Shown here piece after piece: positions 728-16,447 of a stretch of DNA of 64,000 bases (the stretch's first letter is position 1; every line of letters starts with the position of its first letter). Below the pieces are notes generated by a model that saw nothing but the letters and a program-made list of their open reading frames with translations, made no database searches and had not been told where the DNA came from. The translations under genes and the position numbers were made by a program. Source of the stretch: a virus (lineage: Duplodnaviria > Caudoviricetes); IMG/VR virus record IMGVR_UViG_3300025706_000021, positions 1 through 64,000 of that record; one strand, written 5' to 3'.

Positions 728-2737
728 TTACTCCAAAGTAACTTCGACTGTCGGAATGTAGTTCGGCAACATTTGGTCAGCAGACCAGTTAAGCTCACTT
801 GTCGGTACGGATGCGGGTGTCAGCACATCATCACCCGCCGAAAGAATTGCCGTGTAGTCGTTCTCGTCATAGGTGATGACGAAGATCGGGATGTCCAGGA
901 GGGCACTGATCGCACCCAGCTTGCTCGCAACCGCAGTCCAATCAACAAGCGCCTCGCCCATCAGCTTGATCTGCGTTTGCAGCGTCGATGCGTTAGCTGT
1001 CGTTTCCGAGAACAGACTGCCGAACAATGGAATACCGGTCGTGAGCGGAGCGGATGCAGATGCCGACGCAATGATCGAACCTGCCAGTTTAATCAGCGTC
1101 GTTAGTGCGGCAGAACCAGCGCTCGAAGAGTTCGCTGCGCCGACCATCTTGATTGCAGTCGAGAGCGAACCACTTGCGCTCGAACTGGCGACAACGGCGA
1201 CAGCTACCTTGATTGCTGTCGTCAGTGCAGCGGTTGCAACCGACGAAGACGAACTGGATGCAGCGAGACGAATCGATGTCGAAAGCGAACCAGTAGCAAC
1301 AGAGGTTGCCTGTACCGTCGAGGCAAATTGTGTTCTTGTCGTGAGCGAGCCGGATGCCGACACGCTTGCAGAAACAGATCCAGCGAGCGGAATACCGGTC
1401 GTCAGAACGCCCGTTGCCGTCGCGACCGAGACCGCATTCGAAGACAACTGAGCAGACGTGCCAACAAGCGAAGCAGATGCGCTTGCTACCGAGATAGCCG
1501 AGCCTGTTAGTTTGATCCCCGTGGTCAGCGAAGCAGACGCAAGCGATGCAGCGCTTACCGTTGCAGAAAGCGGGATGCCCGTTGTAAGCGCGCCAGTCGC
1601 TGTAACAGCACACTGAGGGCTTGCGTTGAGGCGAATCGCTGTGGTCAGGTTTGCCGACGCTACAGACGAAACCGCGCTCGATGCACCCGTTAGCTTGATC
1701 CCTGTCGTCAATGCGCCCGTTGCTGTCGATACGGCGCTCGTTGATCCAGATAGTTGCGCCCCTACAGTCAGGTTCGCAGAGGCGAAAGACACACTGTTCG
1801 CAGTACCGGCGAATTGTGCCCCTACAGTCAGGTTGCCGGTCGCGGTCGAGACAACGTATGCCGCTGCATTCAGTCCAGAACCCACCGTCAGCGATGCCGT
1901 TGCCGACACAACAGAAGCGATAGAGCCGGTCAGCGGAATGCCGGTGGAGAGCGCGGCAGATGCAGTTGCAGCCGAAGAAGCAGATGCAGAAAGCGGGATG
2001 CCCGTAGAGAGTGAGGCCGTTGCGGTAGATCCGCAAGATACAGCACCGGTCAGCTTGATGGCGCTTGTCAGACTTGCCGAGCTTGTTGCGACACAAGACG
2101 GGCTTCCCGAAAGCGGAATACCGGTTGTCAGGGCAGCAGAGGACGAAACGACACCTGTTACAGATGCGTTTAGCTTGATCCCCGTGGTGAGCGTTGCTGT
2201 GGCGACAGATGCAGAAGAAACGCTCGCTGTGAGCGCTGCTGCCGGGCCATAGGTAGTCAGGTCTGCCGTTGCGGTCGCGGAACAAGACACAGATGCGTCA
2301 AGAGCCGCGCCAGCAGGTCTGGCGACAGGTAGGCTGAACTCAACCCAAGTAACCTTCGCCGCCAGGCCAGGAATGTTACCGAGCGTAGGAGGCGGGATTG
2401 AAGCGGTACATTGGGCGACTGCCTGCATCTGAATGCTTGTGGTCAGCGTTGCCGACGCGAACGAGACGGCGGTTGCAGCAGCCGCAAAACGTGGGGCAAT
2501 CGTAAGGGTGGCGGTCACGGACGACACCACCGTTGCTGCCCCTGTTAGCAGAATTCCTGTCGTAAGCGTGGCTGTCGCGGAAGACTGACAGTCCCCCGAT
2601 GCAGTGCCGATTACATTTGCATTACCGGCAGAAAACAGACGTGTCGATACAACCTGCGAGACACCCGAGGTTTTATCGGCACTTGCGCGCGATACCCAGC
2701 GCTCGCCTAGAAGGTTCTTCCAGCCGCCATTTGCCAT
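728..2737 (-). CDS. Ala/Ser/Thr-rich repeat protein, probable virion appendage
   Basis: About 25 copies of a ~20-aa unit (LTTGIPLxxxxxxxxxASAx); lies in the structural operon. Confidence 0.65.
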   Translation of the reverse strand: MANGGWKNLLGERWVSRASADKTSGVSQVVSTRLFSAGNANVIGTASGDCQSSATATLTTGILLTGAATVVSSVTATLTIAPRFAAAATAVSFASATLTTSIQMQAVAQCTASIPPPTLGNIPGLAAKVTWVEFSLPVARPAGAALDASVSCSATATADLTTYGPAAALTASVSSASVATATLTTGIKLNASVTGVVSSSAALTTGIPLSGSPSCVATSSASLTSAIKLTGAVSCGSTATASLSTGIPLSASASSAATASAALSTGIPLTGSIASVVSATASLTVGSGLNAAAYVVSTATGNLTVGAQFAGTANSVSFASANLTVGAQLSGSTSAVSTATGALTTGIKLTGASSAVSSVASANLTTAIRLNASPQCAVTATGALTTGIPLSATVSAASLASASLTTGIKLTGSAISVASASASLVGTSAQLSSNAVSVATATGVLTTGIPLAGSVSASVSASGSLTTRTQFASTVQATSVATGSLSTSIRLAASSSSSSVATAALTTAIKVAVAVVASSSASGSLSTAIKMVGAANSSSAGSAALTTLIKLAGSIIASASASAPLTTGIPLFGSLFSETTANASTLQTQIKLMGEALVDWTAVASKLGAISALLDIPIFVITYDENDYTAILSAGDDVLTPASVPTSELNWSADQMLPNYIPTVEVTLE

Positions 2738-6436: not shown

Positions 6437-6673
6437 TTAGCCGACCAGGCCAGTGCCGTATTCGACCGGTGCCGGGGAGGCGTCGTTTTCGCCGACGACC
6501 CAATACTGGAAGCCTTCGACATCGACGGTTTGACCGGCTTGCACGATCACTTCGCGCAGACCATTGTCGTATTCCGAACCAGCGGTGGAGCCGACTTCAG
6601 CAGAGCCGACGCCGTTATGAACGCGGGAAATGACCTTGACGGCTACGTCCTTCTTGTTTGTGATGGTAATCAT
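6437..6673 (-). CDS. Small hypothetical protein ending the rSAM transcript
   Basis: 78 aa, AAGGA RBS, precedes the terminator. Confidence 0.6.
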   Translation of the reverse strand: MITITNKKDVAVKVISRVHNGVGSAEVGSTAGSEYDNGLREVIVQAGQTVDVEGFQYWVVGENDASPAPVEYGTGLVG

Positions 6674-6750
6674 CTGATTCCTTCTATAAGTTTGGTTGGT
6701 GAAGTCGCCAATGTAATCTGCGACGGTTACGTTGTCAAGTCAGTTGTGAC

Positions 6751-8169
6751 TTATTTTGCAACAACTTTGATCGGAAACGCCTTCTTCGGTTTTTCCTCTT
6801 CGTGTTTGAGAATGTCGCCCCAAATATCCTTGCGGTGATCGGGCAAATGATCGGCATCGATAGCGAATGGAACATACCCCGTCAGCTTGAGAAACGCGGC
6901 AGAGAAGATCGCGATGTTGTCGCTGTAGGAGCTTTCGCAGGACTTGTAGAAATTCTCGTCTTGCAGAAACGTGCAAGATCCACGACACATCGACAACACC
7001 GGGCACCTGCGACAGTGTGGTCGGTCAGTCCAGTGCGTGATCGTGTTGAGCTTGACCGCCGCGAGGTCGTCCAGGCTACCGACGTTGTGCGATTCTCCAT
7101 TCGGAGCGATCTGGTTTGCACTGACGTTCTGGCAGGTAATGACGTTACCTTCCATATCGACGATCAGCGTGCTTTCGTCAGAAATGCCACACTTGATGTC
7201 TTGGACGCGAATCTGCTGGGCGTTCATAACACCCTGCAAGATGCCGCCCATCTTGTTGTCGATGTGCTGAAAGCGCAGTTCCCCGCCAACGATCTCTTTC
7301 AGCGTCAGCTTGCGGTAGTCAAAGTGCGCCTGTTTCGAGTTTAGGCAAAGACTCTGCCCGCCCTCGTCGTAGCTGTCGATGAACCCACCCTCGCCTATCG
7401 GCGGAATGTCTTTCCCAAAGCGTTCTTCAAACCACTCCTGAATCTTCATGCGGCTTTGGTTTTGCGCATTGACCATCGCATTGAATGAGCCTTTGCCCTT
7501 CTTGAAAATCTTCTCGAAGCAGTAGCGAATCCCATCCTTTGTTTCATCGCTTCCGTCATCAATCGGATCTGGCCCGCGAACATGCTGTCCAGGCCCATCG
7601 TGCGAGATCGAGACAATGAAGCCCATGTCGTCAAGCCAATCAACAATCGGGCGTGTCAGAAGACTTCCGTTTGTGATGATCGAGAATTGAGCTTTCGGGA
7701 GTACGACGCGCAGCTTCTCAGCGAGCGGCTGAAGCGTCTTGATGTAGACAAGAGGCTCACCACCCCAAAACTCAACACGAACGCCATCACCCCCATCATT
7801 GAACTCGATTGCTGCCTGCAAACGCGCAATAAAGCCATCGATCTTGTCGGGCGTACCGGCAATCGGGCGCTCGACAAAGCGCTGCGAGCAATACGTGCAT
7901 TCGTAGTTGCACGACATGCCAAGCTGAATTTTCAGACGACGAACATTCTTGGTCTTCTTGCCTGGCTTTTCAGGTGAGTAGGGAGCCTCATAGCTTGGCT
8001 CGAAATCACTTACAGGGTCATTGATATGTTCGTACTTGCCATTCACATCGCCGACGCGAGTGTTCGCGTCGATCCAGACCTTGTTGGTAATGTTGTCGTA
8101 CAGGAAATCTCGCGTCTTGCCATCGTTTTCTCCCCCGATTGCTTTCGCCAAAATACGAAACTTAGCCAT
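6751..8169 (-). CDS. Radical SAM enzyme with SPASM domain (peptide/protein maturase type)
   Basis: CNYECTYC (CxxxCxxC), FWGGEPL, SIITNGSLL, C-terminal Cys cluster KCG...VITC...CRRCPVLSMCRGSC...KSC. Confidence 0.92.
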   Translation of the reverse strand: MAKFRILAKAIGGENDGKTRDFLYDNITNKVWIDANTRVGDVNGKYEHINDPVSDFEPSYEAPYSPEKPGKKTKNVRRLKIQLGMSCNYECTYCSQRFVERPIAGTPDKIDGFIARLQAAIEFNDGGDGVRVEFWGGEPLVYIKTLQPLAEKLRVVLPKAQFSIITNGSLLTRPIVDWLDDMGFIVSISHDGPGQHVRGPDPIDDGSDETKDGIRYCFEKIFKKGKGSFNAMVNAQNQSRMKIQEWFEERFGKDIPPIGEGGFIDSYDEGGQSLCLNSKQAHFDYRKLTLKEIVGGELRFQHIDNKMGGILQGVMNAQQIRVQDIKCGISDESTLIVDMEGNVITCQNVSANQIAPNGESHNVGSLDDLAAVKLNTITHWTDRPHCRRCPVLSMCRGSCTFLQDENFYKSCESSYSDNIAIFSAAFLKLTGYVPFAIDADHLPDHRKDIWGDILKHEEEKPKKAFPIKVVAK

Positions 8170-8950
8170 TCGCTATTTCCTGATTCTCATCGAGACCGCG
8201 CTTGAAGTCTTCAATTATTTCGCCGCGACGTACCTGTAGCTCACGAACGCGGCTCTTGCGCGCACCAATATCGCTCAGCACGTCCTCGCCGTCCTTGATG
8301 TTCAGGATCGAATACTGCTCGATCTTCTCGCGAAACGACTTAGCCAATGGTGACTGCTTTGCCTTGAGTTGATCGACAAGCTCGAACACAATCTTGGACA
8401 GAATATCAACCTGCGACTCAATCGCGGCAATTGAAGCATGGCCGTTCAGCTTGGTCATCACGACCGCCTTTGTTCTTTCGCGAACCTGATCCAGAATGAA
8501 GTCCGGGTTCATTTCGAACAGGCGATCCCACATGCTCTTTGACCCATCTTCCATCATTTCGATGACCGCCTGGTCGCAGTGTGTCGGAACATGGGAGGTG
8601 ATGCCAATTGAACCTTCTTTGCCGACCATGAATGTTGCGACATGGTTCTCAAGCACCGAAGAGAACGGGCCGTCATTCAGCCCCTTCGTGTATTCGATGA
8701 TCTCAAATGTGTCCCATACACGAACCAGCGCAAAGAGCTTTACGCCACTTTCGGCAGCAAACATGCTGCGGAGATCGCTCGCTTGGTAACTGTGGTCGAT
8801 TACGATGTCTTTGCCCTCCATGTGATAGGAGTCATAGCGAATAGTAATCTTCCCGTCATCAAGCGCACCCACAAACAACTTGTTTGTGAATAGCTCCTTG
8901 CACTCTTCTGTCCAGATGTTGCGAGCAGCGATAAATACGTCTTTTTTCAT
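8162..8950 (-). CDS. Hypothetical partner of the radical SAM enzyme
   Basis: 262 aa, 8-nt overlap with the rSAM gene; helical C-terminus. Confidence 0.7.
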   Translation of the reverse strand: MKKDVFIAARNIWTEECKELFTNKLFVGALDDGKITIRYDSYHMEGKDIVIDHSYQASDLRSMFAAESGVKLFALVRVWDTFEIIEYTKGLNDGPFSSVLENHVATFMVGKEGSIGITSHVPTHCDQAVIEMMEDGSKSMWDRLFEMNPDFILDQVRERTKAVVMTKLNGHASIAAIESQVDILSKIVFELVDQLKAKQSPLAKSFREKIEQYSILNIKDGEDVLSDIGARKSRVRELQVRRGEIIEDFKRGLDENQEIANG

Positions 8951-8962
8951 ATTCTTTCCTTG

Positions 8963-9493
8963 TTATACACAGTCACAGTTGCAGTTATCAATGTCGTAGA
9001 GGGGGTTATAATTGCACGCGCAATTGCAGTTGAAGCAATTGCAATTTGGCTGATACCACCAACGGGTATCACAATTCGAGGTTGTCACATCACACTGAGA
9101 GCAGGCGACATTGATGTCTGGGCTGGCTGTCTGGTTTGAACAGTTGCAGTTGTTCCAGCACTGCGCCCACACGTTCGCAGAGCAGTTCTGTGCGTAACGC
9201 GACTTGCGGTAGTAGATGTTGGCATTAGCTACAGACCAACTAGTCACCCCTAGCATCGGGTTTGTGTCCAAGTAATACCAGCCAACCCACACCGGAACGG
9301 AATCAACAAAAGTAAAGGTACTTCCGCTGTTGTTCTTCTGGTACATGACCATGTTGCGGTATGAGTTGAAGTCGTTGTAGGCCCACTTGCAGTTGGACTT
9401 AACCCAGCCCAAGTCAATCGCGGAATTAGACGCCCACCCGTGCATCGCCCCAAACTCGGAAAGCGAGATTGACCCGCCATCATAGAGTGACAT
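8963..9493 (-). CDS. Cys/Asn-rich tail-fibre-coupled protein, candidate rSAM substrate
   Basis: TAATG coupling to the fibre; N-terminal GGSISLSEF motif; 15 Cys in the last ~75 aa, 10 of them preceded by Asn. Confidence 0.75.
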   Translation of the reverse strand: MSLYDGGSISLSEFGAMHGWASNSAIDLGWVKSNCKWAYNDFNSYRNMVMYQKNNSGSTFTFVDSVPVWVGWYYLDTNPMLGVTSWSVANANIYYRKSRYAQNCSANVWAQCWNNCNCSNQTASPDINVACSQCDVTTSNCDTRWWYQPNCNCFNCNCACNYNPLYDIDNCNCDCV

Positions 9494-10788
9494 TACGCAC
9501 CCGCCTTCAGTGCGTCGAGTTCAGCACGAAGCTCTTTCACTGCCTCGATCAGCACGGGAACCAGTTTTTCGTAAGCAACCGTCTTGTAGGACTCGCCGTC
9601 AATTTCGATAGAGTCAGTGACGATCTCTGGCATGACAGACATTACTTGATCTGCCAGAATCCCATAGTCACGCTTGCCAGCCTTACACTCGGTATGGGTG
9701 TAGCCATGTTTCCAGATGAATGTTCCGCCGTCGAGTTTGTTCAAGATGTCGAACGGACTTGAAACTCGCTCGAAGTTTTCCTTCAGACGCGGATCGGAGT
9801 AGGCGGTGACGTTTCCAGCGGCAGTCATATTGCCGCTTCCGTCTGAATACCACGACCACGCCGAGCGCGACCAACCACCAAACCCGAAAAACCCGTCAGG
9901 GCGCAGATGCAGCTTGATGGCGTAAGCGCCCTGACAGTGGAACGACATCGCTGCCACCGCACCGTCTCCATCCCCACTGACGTTACGCACCTGAAGCGAC
10001 GACGTATCAGATCCAACGGCAGTTGTAGAGTTGATCGCCGCACCGGTCAGAACGCCAGTCATCGTGTCGCCAGACTTTGCTAGACGCGAACTAAGATCGA
10101 GGTTGATATTCCCCGAACCATCTGGCCCCGAAGAATTGATCGTGCGAACGAACGACGACGCATTGTATCCGTCAAGCATATCTGCATTCAGATTGGCATT
10201 GACCGCCCCGTTGCTGACCGGGATGTCGCCACTTGCGTTGCTTACGTTCTTGCCATCAACCGTATCTGCATCCAGACCGGAGCCGGAGCCGTCGTTTTCT
10301 TCTGTCCAGACCTTGATCCAGCTTCCCCACGTTCCAGCAAGACGACGGCGCATGTATGTGCTTCCGTTTGCGGTCAGCGACGTTGCCTTTTGGAGAACGT
10401 ATCCAGACCCACCGCTGAATGCTTGAACAAAGATATGCCAGAAGCCAGCAGCCGGGGCATTCGTCAGGGAGTCGCCGTCGTAGAAGCCCGATGTCAAAAG
10501 CGCGTCAAGATCGGTCGATGCGATGCTCTTGCTGGTGCCCCAAGTAAGCGAGTTGATCGCTGAAGAGCCTGTTGCGAAATCCCAAATCAGCGACCAAGTT
10601 GGCGTTGCATCTTTCAGGATATACAGCTTGAGCAAATCCGTTCGAAAACAGAGCATGCCCACATGCAAATTCGAAGTCGGGAACACGCTTCCAGACGAAC
10701 ATGAAAGTGCGGTTTTGTCGTTACCAAGCAGCAGCGCCAAAGAACTTTGAAGCGACTGCGAGGAAGGAATTTCGGTATAGCTTTGCAT
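9493..10788 (-). CDS. Tail fibre with pyocin-knob-like segment and C-terminal S74 intramolecular chaperone
   Basis: YSDPRLKEN cleavage motif, RDYGILADQV and VAYEKLVPVLIEAVKEL; DLDALLTSGFY knob-like motif. Confidence 0.88.
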   Translation of the reverse strand: MQSYTEIPSSQSLQSSLALLLGNDKTALSCSSGSVFPTSNLHVGMLCFRTDLLKLYILKDATPTWSLIWDFATGSSAINSLTWGTSKSIASTDLDALLTSGFYDGDSLTNAPAAGFWHIFVQAFSGGSGYVLQKATSLTANGSTYMRRRLAGTWGSWIKVWTEENDGSGSGLDADTVDGKNVSNASGDIPVSNGAVNANLNADMLDGYNASSFVRTINSSGPDGSGNINLDLSSRLAKSGDTMTGVLTGAAINSTTAVGSDTSSLQVRNVSGDGDGAVAAMSFHCQGAYAIKLHLRPDGFFGFGGWSRSAWSWYSDGSGNMTAAGNVTAYSDPRLKENFERVSSPFDILNKLDGGTFIWKHGYTHTECKAGKRDYGILADQVMSVMPEIVTDSIEIDGESYKTVAYEKLVPVLIEAVKELRAELDALKAGA

Positions 10789-10827
10789 ACAAACCTTTAG
10801 TCAGTTGTGACTGATTTTAGCACAGGA

Positions 10828-12412: not shown

Positions 12413-15400
12413 TCAAGACCAATAGAGTTTAAGCGCTGTCATTGTTCCGATGGGGGTCAGCGCAGCTTCCCCATGCCCAACCAGGCCGCCCAGCTTTCCA
12501 ACAAACAGCTTTCGAACATCTGCTGTCTGCACTATCACCACACCAATAACATCGTTCGGAACGATTGTGAGCGGTGCGTAGACTGCATTCCCCTGATTGT
12601 CTGTCAGGGAGAAGCGCTGCGTCGGTTCGTCATATCCCAAACGCAAGTATCCACCCGCACCGGAGAACTCAAGCACTGAGATTTGCGCGGCATCGCCGAT
12701 CATCTTTGGGATCAGCCATGTCGAATATTTGAAAACCGGCTGAATCGACACATTCGTCCAATCAACCTTGACGCCACCTTGGAGTCGCAGACCTTGGGTG
12801 TTTCTTCCAGCCTGATACGTGACATTTGTTGCGGTTGTTGCGGCCTTCCCGCCAATGCTTGTCAGAGAACCGCTAAGCATCCATCCATCGAATTCGTCAA
12901 AGCGCAGACCCGCCTTCATCGATATTTGGTATTTCGCAACAACCGAATCAACTTCACCGCCAGGTGCCCAATGACGCAGCGACTCTGTACTAAGCCAATC
13001 AAACCCCGATGTTGTCCAGGTGATCGTGTCGGTATCGTCAAGGATCGACGTGACCTGTCCATAGATGGAATTCGCGGCTCGATAGGTATCAAGCAGATCA
13101 ACAGGGAAGATGTACTCGCATCGAGACACGCCGTCGATCATCATCAGGTCGTAACCAACCGGCGTCATGTTCAGCGAGTTGTGCGGCCAGTTGAGCGCCG
13201 CCTCATTGAACGACGCAACGATGTTCGAGTCTGTCGGCATCGCAATGGTCGTGTCGACCCATGCGGCATTTACGCTGTAGATTCCAGGAGCAGCGACAGC
13301 TTTGATCCAGAACTTGCGAATGCCGATTGTTCCAGACGGGACAGACAGCGACGTTGCCTTCACTTCAGCAAGTACCTTACCCGATTGCCACGCGCTGCCC
13401 TCGCGCACTTCGTAGTACGAGATTTCCTCGTTTTCCGCGCTCTCCCACGTTAGCTCAACACGGGAACCAGACTGAATGATGTCGAAGCGTTTCGGCGTGC
13501 TTGGGGCGACAAGAACGAGCTTGAAGGTCGTCACGTTGTCAGAATACTCCCCGCCCATGTTGATTGAGCGAATGTGGTAGAAGTACGTGCCAGCATTGTC
13601 CTGGTCATGCGTCAGCATCGTTCCCGCGAAGTTTGTCGTAATGATCGAACCCTCGTCCCACGACACCCCAACGCGAACCTCGTATCCAAGCAGGTTGATG
13701 TCCGTAACCGCATCCCATGTCAGCAACAAATCGCGCGTGCGCTTTTGCACGACGAAGTTTGCCACGTCACCAGGCGCAGCAGTTTTGCCAACTGTGATGT
13801 ATGAGGCATCAAGTCTTGCCGAGCGAACCCCAAAAGCATTTACGGCTGTAATCGAAAAGTGGTAGCGACCAGCACGCACATTGTCCAGTTCGAGAAGCGC
13901 GCTGCTTGTCTTTTCGGTTTTCCAGTTCGTTTCGTATTTACCGGTGCGCTTCCAGTCAATTTCGTAATATGCAGCATCGCACTCCCACGAAACATCAAGG
14001 GTCAGGCCCATTATGCCTGGCGCGATGATGACAGGAACTTCAGATACCGCAAAGTTCTTCGGGGTAGTGACGGACTTTGTGTTGATAGCCGATGTTGGCG
14101 TATCCTGCAACTTCAGACCATACTCAATCGCGGCGAATTTCGACTTGTTATGCTCTACCGCAGTGATCGTGTATTGCCCTACTTCCTTGCCCTGCCCGAC
14201 ACCAAGCACGCGCGCTTGCATCGGCACAAGGTTCGGTTCGGATATGATCCAAATGGCACCATCTACGGGATATGCAGGAAGAGGCTCCCACCATGAAACT
14301 GACGTTTGCTCAGATGCACCAGCAGGCAAACCGCGAAGTGTGCGCTCCGCAAATGTTCCATCCGGCATTCGAATGGAGATTGTCGTCCCATCAAGTCCTG
14401 CCAACTGCACTGGACTGTCGAGAACAACCGATGTCAGCCCAGGCGCGGTAAGACGACCACCGAGGCGCTTACCAGCGCGTGACGCATCCTGAATTCGAAT
14501 CAGGTCGCCAGGAAGCACCAGCGCCGAGTCGATCCCGACACTGAATGACACGACGTCGGATTCGAATTGCTCTGTATAAAGAATCCAAAGACCAACGCGG
14601 TGCGCTTGAGCGCGCGATGTGCATCCGAATGCAACGACCTCAACCTTTCGAATCCCAACCTTTGCGATCATGTCGGGGTTTTCGACGTACTCAATCACGC
14701 GCTGATAGTTCTGAGTAGGATCGTTCCACGCGACATGCGCAACGCTGTGACGGTCTTTTCTTGCAGATCCAGTGTAAGTGAACAGCCCGTCAATAACATT
14801 TGCATGGCTATACACCATCTGCGAGTCGCCCGGTGCGTCTTGCGTGAATCCGACCATGCCGCCATTCCAGTATGCCATTCCTCTAAAGACAGAGGTGATG
14901 TCAGAAATGACCTTGTAAGCCTCCGCTTGCGCCTGGATTACCGTATTGATCGTGAAGCGCGGCTCCCACCCACCAAAGCCATTTGGAACCATTTCGTCGC
15001 AGTAACGACCGATCTGATAGAGCTTGGCCTTATCGACTCTTGACTCAGGCAAGAATTGCCCAAGACCGTAGCGGGCGGTCGTCAGAATGTCGTAAAGAAC
15101 CCAGGCTGGATTGTTCGAAACTGCGACTTTGAACGTGCCATCCCAAATGCCGTAATACTGACGCGAGGCTGGGTCGTAATTTGTCGGCACGCGAATATAC
15201 AAACCATCAACCAAGTAGGCGCGCGATGGGATTGAGTTGAACTGCGACGAATCGATTGTTACGCCGACAATCGCGGAGTTAGGGTAGCTCAGTCGTGAAT
15301 TAACGATCTCGACGCATGACTCGAATCCGATCTGGTTTTGCACAGACTGGTCGGCAGGATCGGGAGTAGTGCGCGTCATTCGGATCGACCAGCGCTGTGC

Positions 15401-16447
15401 AGCACCACCGTAGCCCCACTTTGGGAGTGCCACTTGATAGCTGCGCTCGTAGCGTGAGCGCGTCTTTCCAGAAATACTCAACTCACCGGTCAAGTCCTGG
15501 TATGGCCCGCCGTTGATGGACACATCGAATTTGAAATTGACGTAGCTTCCGTGGATGTCCCCATTCGTCTTGTCCTGCGAGTACAGGCTTTGCACAGCAA
15601 CAATCAATCGAACGGCATCGACGTTCGGGTTCGTGATCGACACGGAGATCGGCGTTGATGCGGTGACGAGCGAACTTACGACATTCGGCGTCTCGACATC
15701 AGAGAACCCACCTCCCATCGGGGATTGCCATTGTGTTCCGTATCGCGCGTCCCACGAAACACCATTGAAGTTCATTGCGCCATCGACGCGCTGCAATGGG
15801 GTATCGTTGAAGAAAATGGACTGAGCGCCACTCACCAAGCCGCCGATCTGCCCCTCTCCCAATAGGTCGAGAACCGAGATCATCGCACGCGACTGCAATG
15901 TGTCTGGATCTTCTACAGCAGCGCGTGGGGTGCCACCACCGTCGCCCTTGCTCTTGCTACCACCACCAGAACCAGCAACGACAGGATAGCGCTCGCGGTG
16001 CCCGCCGTTATGAACGCGAACGCCACTTGCGATGAACGTGTGGTGCGGTTCGACTGTCAGGTTCCACACCGGTTCGTAACCGACCAGTTCGGCCTCAATG
16101 ATCGGACGAAGATGCCCCATGCCATCAACAAGGGCGTCATGGGTCGAGAGAGAACCGATCTCGGCAAAGTTTCCATACTGGTTCAGAACCCAATGGTTTG
16201 GGGTGATGAACACCTCACCACGCCAAAACTTCACACGAAGAATTGGCTGCGGATCTTCGTGGTAGTGCAGTTCCGTTACTTTCGCGTTGTGGATGTTGCC
16301 ATCTTCGTCAAACGCAAGAACAGAGTCGCCCGTCTTGAGTTCTTCGATTGCGAGCGTCTTTCCACCCGCAAGCTGAACCTGCGTTCCCTTTCGAAAACAC
16401 CCACCGCCACCACCCGCGCCAGCAATACTTCTCAGTTCGTCAGACAT
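12413..16447 (-). CDS. Tail tip/central fibre protein J (TipJ) with N-terminal Hint domain
   Basis: 1344 aa; LLGEGQIGG, YPNSAIVG, SNNPAWVLYDIL, FGCTSRAQAHRVG, FN3 repeats; Hint at aa 17-147. Confidence 0.92.
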   Translation of the reverse strand: MSDELRSIAGAGGGGGCFRKGTQVQLAGGKTLAIEELKTGDSVLAFDEDGNIHNAKVTELHYHEDPQPILRVKFWRGEVFITPNHWVLNQYGNFAEIGSLSTHDALVDGMGHLRPIIEAELVGYEPVWNLTVEPHHTFIASGVRVHNGGHRERYPVVAGSGGGSKSKGDGGGTPRAAVEDPDTLQSRAMISVLDLLGEGQIGGLVSGAQSIFFNDTPLQRVDGAMNFNGVSWDARYGTQWQSPMGGGFSDVETPNVVSSLVTASTPISVSITNPNVDAVRLIVAVQSLYSQDKTNGDIHGSYVNFKFDVSINGGPYQDLTGELSISGKTRSRYERSYQVALPKWGYGGAAQRWSIRMTRTTPDPADQSVQNQIGFESCVEIVNSRLSYPNSAIVGVTIDSSQFNSIPSRAYLVDGLYIRVPTNYDPASRQYYGIWDGTFKVAVSNNPAWVLYDILTTARYGLGQFLPESRVDKAKLYQIGRYCDEMVPNGFGGWEPRFTINTVIQAQAEAYKVISDITSVFRGMAYWNGGMVGFTQDAPGDSQMVYSHANVIDGLFTYTGSARKDRHSVAHVAWNDPTQNYQRVIEYVENPDMIAKVGIRKVEVVAFGCTSRAQAHRVGLWILYTEQFESDVVSFSVGIDSALVLPGDLIRIQDASRAGKRLGGRLTAPGLTSVVLDSPVQLAGLDGTTISIRMPDGTFAERTLRGLPAGASEQTSVSWWEPLPAYPVDGAIWIISEPNLVPMQARVLGVGQGKEVGQYTITAVEHNKSKFAAIEYGLKLQDTPTSAINTKSVTTPKNFAVSEVPVIIAPGIMGLTLDVSWECDAAYYEIDWKRTGKYETNWKTEKTSSALLELDNVRAGRYHFSITAVNAFGVRSARLDASYITVGKTAAPGDVANFVVQKRTRDLLLTWDAVTDINLLGYEVRVGVSWDEGSIITTNFAGTMLTHDQDNAGTYFYHIRSINMGGEYSDNVTTFKLVLVAPSTPKRFDIIQSGSRVELTWESAENEEISYYEVREGSAWQSGKVLAEVKATSLSVPSGTIGIRKFWIKAVAAPGIYSVNAAWVDTTIAMPTDSNIVASFNEAALNWPHNSLNMTPVGYDLMMIDGVSRCEYIFPVDLLDTYRAANSIYGQVTSILDDTDTITWTTSGFDWLSTESLRHWAPGGEVDSVVAKYQISMKAGLRFDEFDGWMLSGSLTSIGGKAATTATNVTYQAGRNTQGLRLQGGVKVDWTNVSIQPVFKYSTWLIPKMIGDAAQISVLEFSGAGGYLRLGYDEPTQRFSLTDNQGNAVYAPLTIVPNDVIGVVIVQTADVRKLFVGKLGGLVGHGEAALTPIGTMTALKLYWS
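16007..16399 (-). other. Hint / intein-like domain (131 aa) in TipJ
   Basis: Starts CFRKGT, has ITPNH block B, ends VWNLTVEPHHTFIASGVRVHN; +1 residue is Gly. Confidence 0.85.

Follow-up and report, generated by a model that had tools for sequence, protein, structure and literature searches.

A radical SAM/SPASM enzyme and an Asn-Cys-rich fibre-type protein as a candidate cross-linking system in the tail-fibre cassette of an uncultured siphovirus

Positions 6,437 to 10,788 of a 64,000-nucleotide stretch of viral DNA (Caudoviricetes; positions 1 to 64,000 of IMG/VR record IMGVR_UViG_3300025706_000021), hereafter the window, hold a gene cassette in which a tail fibre with a C-terminal S74 intramolecular chaperone is followed by a 176-amino-acid (aa) protein rich in Asn-Cys repeats and, one gene further on, by a radical S-adenosylmethionine (rSAM) enzyme with a SPASM domain. 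The uncultured-virus record from which the window comes is 76.5 kb long, with an estimated completeness of 72%. Altogether our analysis leads us to favour, with moderate confidence, a model in which the 176-aa protein is a fibre-type module that is made apart from the S74 fibre and modified by the adjacent SPASM enzyme, most likely through thioethers. A fibre-tip protein is probably cross-linked enzymatically in these viruses. The model builds on features that can be read directly from the genomes: the gene layout, the intact catalytic motifs, the co-inheritance of the enzyme with (xC)n tails, and the fibre-type nature of the proteins that carry these tails (the carriers).

The linkage between enzyme and Asn-Cys protein was tested both ways, from the enzyme and from NCNCNCNC-coding DNA. 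Starting from the enzyme, Achromobacter phage JWF, Ralstonia phage RSP15 and 13 relatives in IMG/VR (40-46% identity) all have same-strand Asn-Cys open reading frames (ORFs) where upstream DNA is visible. Bacterial assemblies, taken at one genome per species, yielded 205 enzyme relatives, mostly in Burkholderiales prophages and also in Bacteroidota, Verrucomicrobiota and Alphaproteobacteria. An (Asn/Asp-Cys)n ORF lies upstream on the same strand in 53 of the 56 bacterial loci with at least 4 kb of upstream DNA, and in 55 of 56 after inspection, L206 and L207 ending in CDCACACDCACNC or CDCACNC. As a background, 3 of 4,943 other ORFs of related loci contain such runs, which puts the Asn-Cys enrichment of the 176-aa protein far above chance. 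Starting from the DNA, NCNCNCNC-coding sequence was found at at least 80 loci in IMG/VR, 50 of which, among the matches listed, read it in frame within an ORF of 60 aa or more; the number of NCNCNCNC loci in IMG/VR exceeds 120. Among the matches listed, 21 in-frame loci have 4.5 kb or more of downstream DNA, and 18 of these contain the enzyme, always on the same strand; none of 30 out-of-frame control loci does. These data strongly support the view that the enzyme and the Asn-Cys protein are a conserved pair, and carrier plus rSAM are the only constant pair among cassettes. The pairing that the first-pass annotation of this DNA had proposed from the window is kept in both search directions, and rSAM homologues standing without a Cys-rich gene, the pattern that would speak against it, are not what the bacterial loci display.

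Across 114 non-redundant carriers the Asn-Cys run is 4-7 (x-Cys) units long, with Asn at 76%, Asp at 10%, Ala at 6% and Gln at 1% of the x positions. The run lies no more than 11 aa from the C-terminus in 105 of the 114 and forms the exact protein end in 61. Carriers range from tandem triplets of ~93-aa mini-fibres up to fibres of 300-600 aa; tail-fibre PHROGs match 7 of 10 sampled carriers, and two are collagen-like. JWF gp028 has NCNCDCNCNCS immediately before a Hint domain, a layout that recurs in a Burkholderia paludis prophage relative. Existing annotations of JWF and RSP15 say only 'radical SAM domain-containing' and 'hypothetical'. The ~93-aa paralogue triplets, found at about 5.6-6.6 kb in each of loci L005, L007, L010, L012 and L013, share a fibre-like N-terminus, GNGxITFGDGTxLSS...LSQFTNDLGNYGG, and each protein ends exactly in NCNCxCNC; such triplets may form a heterotrimeric mini-fibre. 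In the enzyme subclade of L143, L145 and L032 (Bacteroidota, a Saccharimonadota metagenome-assembled genome and viral contigs) the order is reversed, with the Asn-Cys carrier downstream of the rSAM gene.

The 176-aa protein of the window (8963-9493; this and all other cassette genes are on the minus strand) contains 16 Cys, 15 of them within residues 104-175. Its Asn-Cys-rich region (residues 103-176; 8966-9187) includes NCNC, NCNCFNCNCAC and NCNCDC, just as the first-pass annotation had described, and ends in NCNCDCV. No other real gene of the window has a comparable Asn-Cys run; the ORF at 1089-2285 (398 aa, 47 Cys) was considered as a second substrate and rejected as a shadow frame inside a real 669-aa gene. 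Ordinary searching leaves the 176-aa protein nearly an orphan, a word-indexed protein search returning itself and one orthologue at 69% identity and tblastn against annotated phage genomes giving no match. The family to which it belongs, which we call the NC-framework family and define here by a six-member alignment (A6), emerged only from locus comparison together with an exhaustive profile search. The protein can be aligned to small Cys-rich proteins from Paraburkholderia, from Polynucleobacter and from several viral contigs, and the family is marked by an N-terminal GxISLSxF, 11 invariant Cys columns that are mostly preceded by Asn, a central block NCD-x-R/Q-x-W-x-Q-x-NCNC (NCD-T-R-x-W-x-Q-x-NCNC in the aligned lineages) and a terminal (xC)n run. 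All 11 Cys columns are invariant across six lineages that share 35-45% identity, and the window copy carries a lineage-specific insertion of ~45 aa. The 176-aa protein matches the family profile at E 1.2e-38, being itself one of the six founding members, and the exhaustive search recovered 132 NC-framework clusters (50% identity), of which 102 match with E no higher than 1e-10. The family profile has no match among PDB sequences at E up to 1, and the ESM Atlas model of the 176-aa protein (predicted local distance difference test, pLDDT, 0.37) gave no feature matches and structural template-modelling (TM) scores of 0.36 or less.

Several features tie this family to fibres, as the first-pass annotation had supposed for the window copy. 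An S74 fibre gene lies directly upstream of the NC-framework gene in all six lineages and again in the independently sampled members L222, L223 and P0005, and the rSAM gene directly follows the NC-framework gene in L222, L223 and L224. Long family members extend right after the last Cys run into an S74 domain (at least 9), a Hint domain (at least 13) or a CSKIICxKL domain (at least 7), with the S74 fusions P0042, P0044, P0046 and P0053 scoring above the Pfam cutoff. S74 and Hint modules both remove themselves, so the mature form of these fusions is expected to end in the Cys run, just as the simple fibre tails do. Known clients of S74 chaperones are trimeric fibre and spike proteins. Because the NC-framework domain is fused to these self-removing modules, we consider the NC-framework protein to be, as judged from its sequence relatives, a fibre-type structural module and not the precursor of a secreted peptide. 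The CSKIICxKL extension (L015:2827-3618, L032:41-934; proteins P0018, P0026 and P0086) is ~170 aa long, starts immediately after the Asn-Cys run, has a hydrophobic stretch at its end and belongs to no Pfam family.

The upstream gene of the window (9493-10788) encodes a 431-aa side tail fibre that matches PF13884 Peptidase_S74 (E 1.5e-9; 38.4 bits against a Pfam cutoff of 22) and many tail-fibre PHROGs (best 2e-32), and its N-terminus is homologous to that of JWF gp028 (52% over 73 aa). The chaperone core spans residues 331-390 (9619-9798), and the cleavage motif A329-Y330-S331-D332-x-R334-L335-K336 is invariant among six fibres; with a domain above cutoff and an S-D-x-R-x-K autocleavage motif, the protein is classed as an S74 intramolecular-chaperone fibre. 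Like the S74 fibres and tailspikes of the endosialidase type, it has both domain and cleavage motif, and relatives of the 176-aa protein have S74 directly after the Cys run; the literature yielded no description of enzymatic side-chain cross-linking of S74 fibres. Prophage relatives at L017, L039 and L158 have a fibre with an N-terminus like that of the window, ending directly in NCNCNCNCDCYC and followed by a 2-oxoglutarate (2OG) oxygenase, the accessory protein A2 discussed below and the rSAM enzyme. Because these prophage fibres carry NCNCNCNCDCYC themselves, the window would seem to be a variant in which the Asn-Cys tag is supplied in trans. Prediction of a complex between three copies of fibre residues 200-431 and the 176-aa protein scored 0.00 with an uncertain partner fold, and counts neither way.

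The enzyme (472 aa; 6751-8169) belongs to the radical SAM superfamily by its match to PF04055 (37.2 bits against a cutoff of 29.5), has a SPASM domain by its match to TIGR04085 (32.8 bits against 27) and aligns over residues 52-435 with phrog_1802, a phage radical SAM domain protein (E 2.3e-51). Its CX3CX2C cluster motif (C87, C91 and C94; 7888-7911) and GGEP are invariant in 26 homologues, as are all seven Cys of the SPASM domain (C327, C346, C386, C389, C395, C399 and C411; 6937-7191). The latter follow the pattern C-x(n)-G-x4-C ... C-x2-C-x5-C-x3-C ... C and should be enough for two auxiliary 4Fe-4S clusters. The AlphaFold model (pLDDT 85.6) has anSME, CteB, ChlB, TigE and SuiB as its nearest solved folds at E about 1e-12, and the epimerase EpeE, like the cyclopropyl synthase TigE, is among the fold matches. 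Because these are its nearest folds, the enzyme is predicted to be a SPASM enzyme that modifies peptides or proteins. In the enzyme tree, clustering follows substrate type, none of 500 shuffles giving a value as low, and the window enzyme groups with JWF and other lineages that combine S74 with an NC-framework protein.

In the model that we favour, the 176-aa structural module would be translated separately from the S74 fibre encoded just upstream, and its Asn-Cys framework would be modified post-translationally by the adjacent SPASM enzyme. An auxiliary 4Fe-4S cluster would bind the thiolate of a substrate Cys, as is known for NxxcB, PapB and CrpC, and the 5'-deoxyadenosyl radical would take a hydrogen from the neighbouring Asn or Asp, probably at the beta-carbon, so that a thioether from Cys sulfur to carbon would result. 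Repeated over ~15 Cys, these steps would lock the fibre end with covalent staples arranged as a ladder or knot. The modified protein would presumably be present in the virion and attached to the fibre, with a benefit in stability or receptor binding. A thioether between Cys sulfur and a carbon of the neighbouring Asn or Asp is, by analogy, the most likely chemistry because Cys conservation is strict, because the order of partners (Asn > Asp > Ala > Gln) matches the acceptor and the tolerated residues of NxxcB, because the enzyme is structurally akin to CteB, and because CrpC sets a precedent by installing ranthionines on a whole 28.8-kDa protein. More tentatively, and with somewhat less than even confidence, we propose that many tailed-phage lineages staple Cys to Asn or Asp at the C-terminus of receptor-binding fibres by a dedicated SPASM enzyme, the tag being exposed in four interchangeable ways: as a native C-terminus, through Hint, through S74 or as a separate NC-framework protein.

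Several known systems come close to this model. The streptococcal RaS-RiPP enzyme NxxcB has the Asn beta-carbon as its native acceptor, tolerates Ala, Gln and Asp, and strictly requires Cys (PMC9389541). NxxcB and its substrate NxxcA resemble the window system in that a SPASM-type rSAM enzyme acts on repeated Asn...Cys motifs with a residue spectrum equal to that of the x positions described here. NxxcA, however, is a short secreted-peptide precursor with Asn-x-x-Cys motifs, whereas the window has adjacent Asn-Cys on a 176-aa phage fibre-type protein, and NCBIfam revealed no specific sequence relationship between NxxcB and the window enzyme. CrpC of Methanococcus voltae (TIGR04463) is a SPASM rSAM enzyme with three 4Fe-4S clusters that introduces several thioethers into CrpA, a Cys-rich protein of 28.8 kDa, and a paralogous or accessory protein improves this modification (PMC13692751). 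As proposed for the window, CrpC takes a whole Cys-rich protein and not a peptide as its substrate; unlike the window pair, CrpC and CrpA are archaeal and cellular, with C-x2-3-acceptor motifs in place of Asn-Cys, and the window enzyme scores 38 bits against the 525 needed for the CrpC family. The ranthipeptide maturases PapB (with freyrasin) and CteB (with SCIFF; PDB 5WGG and 5WHY) act on Cys-rich repeats, in which they link several Cys to Asp (beta) or Thr (gamma) by thioethers. Among the best structural matches of the window enzyme is CteB (E 1.5e-12), but PapB and CteB carry an N-terminal recognition element for RiPPs (peptides that are made on the ribosome and altered after translation) and act on short leader-core peptides, and no such RiPP recognition element (RRE) was found in the window enzyme. 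QhpD, which acts in the maturation of quinohaemoprotein amine dehydrogenase, cross-links Cys to Asp or Glu in the structural protein subunit QhpC. It is the second-best NCBIfam match of the window enzyme, yet at 65 against 453 bits, and QhpC is a subunit of a periplasmic enzyme and not a virion protein.

Several points weigh against the model. In one of the two orthologues of the 176-aa protein a Cys-free stretch stands in place of a whole NC block, so that not all sites are essential. Characterised systems have NxxC and Cx2-3-acceptor motifs, a spacing other than the adjacent Asn-Cys seen here. The enzyme lies far below every characterised NCBIfam equivalog cutoff (PapB NF047865, 57 of 340 bits; QhpD TIGR03906, 65 of 453; CrpC family TIGR04463, 38 of 525; CcpM TIGR04068, 56 of 500, these four matching mainly in the rSAM core; anSME TIGR03942, 42 of 349), and because of this its chemistry cannot be read from homology. 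Its top structural match, anSME, makes formylglycine and not a thioether. Pfam and NCBIfam detect no RRE in the enzyme, whose residues 1-38 model as a small beta-sheet, and none in the A2 protein either, for which the model is unusable. The placement of the window enzyme in the tree rests on a long branch and is hence uncertain.

Some of these points could also mean that the enzyme modifies the Asn-Cys protein by another chemistry, such as formylglycine formation as in anSME, epimerisation of alternate residues as in YydG/EpeE and PoyD, or a C-C or ether link; we regard this as unlikely without being negligible. anSME is not only the best structural match but also the only PDB sequence match that spans the full length, it acts on Cys in the context of a folded protein (PDB 4K36-4K39), and JWF gp030 was once annotated as anSME. 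EpeE and TigE are among the fold matches, the enzyme falls in no characterised equivalog, and an alternating pattern would suit alternate-residue epimerisation. However, anSME works within C/S-x-P/A-x-R, a motif absent from the 176-aa protein, and the score of 42 against 349 bits leaves the enzyme outside the anSME family. Cys is strictly kept while its partner varies among Asn, Asp, Ala and Gln, as for thioether acceptors, and the aromatic residues that cyclophane links need are not conserved in the runs. The alternating-Cys tail might instead serve chiefly to bind metal or iron-sulfur on the three-fold axis of a trimeric fibre, with an indirect role for the rSAM enzyme. An analogue is found in the T4 gp37 needle with its His-x-His iron sites, alternating Cys in a beta-strand all face one side, the carriers are of trimeric fibre types and CrpA is suspected of metal binding, but we consider this improbable: it explains neither why the pairing with a complete SPASM enzyme is nearly obligate and on the same strand nor why Asn or Asp is preferred at non-Cys positions. 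A metal-binding role could coexist with modification.

If the product were released, the 176-aa protein would be the precursor of a RiPP-type bacteriocin, host-takeover factor or lysis factor outside the virion. Its size, leader-like conserved N-terminal motif and Cys-rich C-terminal core do resemble Cys-rich RiPP precursors, and the ~93-aa tandem triplets of other phages recall multi-precursor clusters. Yet Pfam, NCBIfam and PHROG scans found no leader protease, peptidase, transporter or exporter, or immunity gene in the cassette or its neighbours, the gene sits between the fibre and further tail genes, the same tail occurs on fibres of 300-600 aa including collagen-like ones, and the NC-framework domain occurs in fusion with S74 chaperones, whose targets are fibre and spike proteins. 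We judge a released product to be if anything slightly less probable than a mainly metal-binding tail. Nothing but the low complexity of the sequence speaks for a coincidental adjacency, in which the Cys-rich ORF would be low-complexity sequence unlinked to the enzyme. Co-occurrence in both search directions, with controls, effectively refutes it, and 11 invariant Cys columns across six lineages and 132 family clusters point the same way. We therefore consider chance to be very improbable.

The gene between the 176-aa protein and the enzyme (8162-8950) encodes a 262-aa protein of a family, A2, that is common to JWF gp029 and some prophages and is recognised by the motif AIAALExQVDxL, with a helical C-terminal half. 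The 262-aa protein has no relative in Pfam, PHROG, NCBIfam or PDB, and the A2 model from an alignment of seven sequences (pLDDT 41.6) is unusable. Other loci have an unrelated protein of ~255 aa, A1, of which RSP15 ORF047 is a member, often accompanied by a 2OG-Fe(II) oxygenase. A1 and A2 were compared for homology, which was rejected (hhalign probability 0.1%), and neither profile matches PDB sequences at E up to 1. Among 121 loci compared by BLAST, some of them truncated, A2 is detected in 17, A1 in 56 and neither in 48. Since carrier and rSAM alone are constant across loci, A2 looks like a lineage-specific accessory and not a universal recognition factor, the part that the first-pass annotation had offered for the 262-aa protein. 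Many cassettes also encode cupin- or 2OG-oxygenase-like proteins, such as RSP15 ORF046 (L002:5985-6851) and L159:10687-11328 (Cupin_2), and PF13759 occurs in L005, L014, L032 and L039, whereas the window cassette encodes no protein of either kind; these proteins suggest a second, oxygen-dependent modification, for example Asn or Asp hydroxylation. Next to the rSAM gene some cassettes have a ~394-aa protein that contains 10 Cys and matches nothing in Pfam or PHROG (L014:6805-7989, L190:5785-6894, L022:3544-4743 and L216:4466-5665).

The window virus is a siphovirus related to JWF, with a lambda-like tail module (tape measure, gpM/L/K/I and gpJ), and the cassette lies 3' of gpJ and two small tail genes, among neighbours that comprise tail and virion genes, a holin and a lysozyme. 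An identical cassette was found on 16 contigs from several samples. Its order is S74 fibre, 176-aa Asn-Cys protein, 262-aa protein, rSAM/SPASM enzyme, 78-aa ORF (6437-6673) and an intrinsic-terminator-like hairpin with an 11-bp stem and a T-run (6419-6395). The fibre and 176-aa genes meet in a TAATG stop/start overlap, 12 nucleotides (nt) holding an AAGGA ribosome-binding site separate the 176-aa and 262-aa genes, and the 262-aa and rSAM genes overlap by 8 nt. This arrangement is the one that the first-pass annotation had given, but the single transcript that it read from it becomes uncertain at the 78-aa ORF, as does that ORF's membership of the cassette. The 77-nt gap after the rSAM gene contains a promoter-like TTGACA-17-TACATT, so the 78-aa ORF need not share a transcript with the cassette. 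That the 78-aa product is a stand-alone A1 C-terminal domain was unsupported, with only a GFQYW-type motif in common (hhalign 1.4%). Ten nt 5' of the fibre ATG stands the 14-bp palindrome AGTCAGTTGTGACT (10799-10812), which leaves no room for a promoter of the fibre's own, and the transcription unit therefore probably starts further upstream than the fibre gene. An identical palindrome at 6738-6751 lies on the rSAM stop codon and abuts the promoter-like site of the 78-aa ORF, directly adjoining its TTGACA -35-like hexamer; the four-gene block is therefore bracketed by the two copies. The palindrome is of the type AGTCA-N4-TGACT, which has 11 exact copies in the window against 0.05 expected (starting at 344, 6354, 6738, 10799, 23186, 23760, 26319, 27381, 37722, 53107 and 58594), and the spacer GTTG is common to those at 6738, 10799 and 58594.

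Elsewhere in the window, the gene for the 1344-aa tip-attachment protein J (gpJ; 12413-16447, minus strand) encodes an N-terminal Hint/intein-like domain (16007-16447; PT-HINT 6.7e-6, Hint 1e-5) ahead of its FNIII-A_GpJ and Phage-tail_3 domains; such a predicted N-terminal self-processing module is unusual on a central tail fibre. The 669-aa protein mentioned above (728-2737, minus strand), encoded downstream of the tail genes, is rich in Ser, Ala and Thr and has ~25 degenerate repeats of ~19 aa of the ATASLTTGIPLSGS type.

SPASM rSAM enzymes acting on Cys-rich substrates are known; new here are their proposed action on fibre proteins of phages and the NC-framework form supplied in trans. Our literature search found no paper that pairs an rSAM enzyme with fibres or describes a fibre tag of the (Asn-Cys)n type, and no proteomic data for JWF, RSP15 or relatives. 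Neither did it find a paper describing rSAM modification of a virion protein, in keeping with the first-pass annotation, which knew of none. The system is widespread: bacterial assemblies contain 205 enzyme relatives, IMG/VR has upwards of 120 NCNCNCNC loci, and the NC-framework clusters number about 130. Because JWF and RSP15 are cultured carriers it is directly testable. A short, portable (Asn-Cys)n tag served by a single enzyme could be useful as a protein-stapling tool. Should the wider stapling proposal be true, it would represent the first case of a virion protein modified by a radical-SAM enzyme, and a RiPP-like pathway of protein scale in viruses. Confirmation of the system would carry rSAM chemistry of the RiPP type beyond small secreted peptides to proteins of the virion, and enzymatic radical cross-linking would join intramolecular chaperones and metal sites among the means by which phages build their host-recognition organelles.

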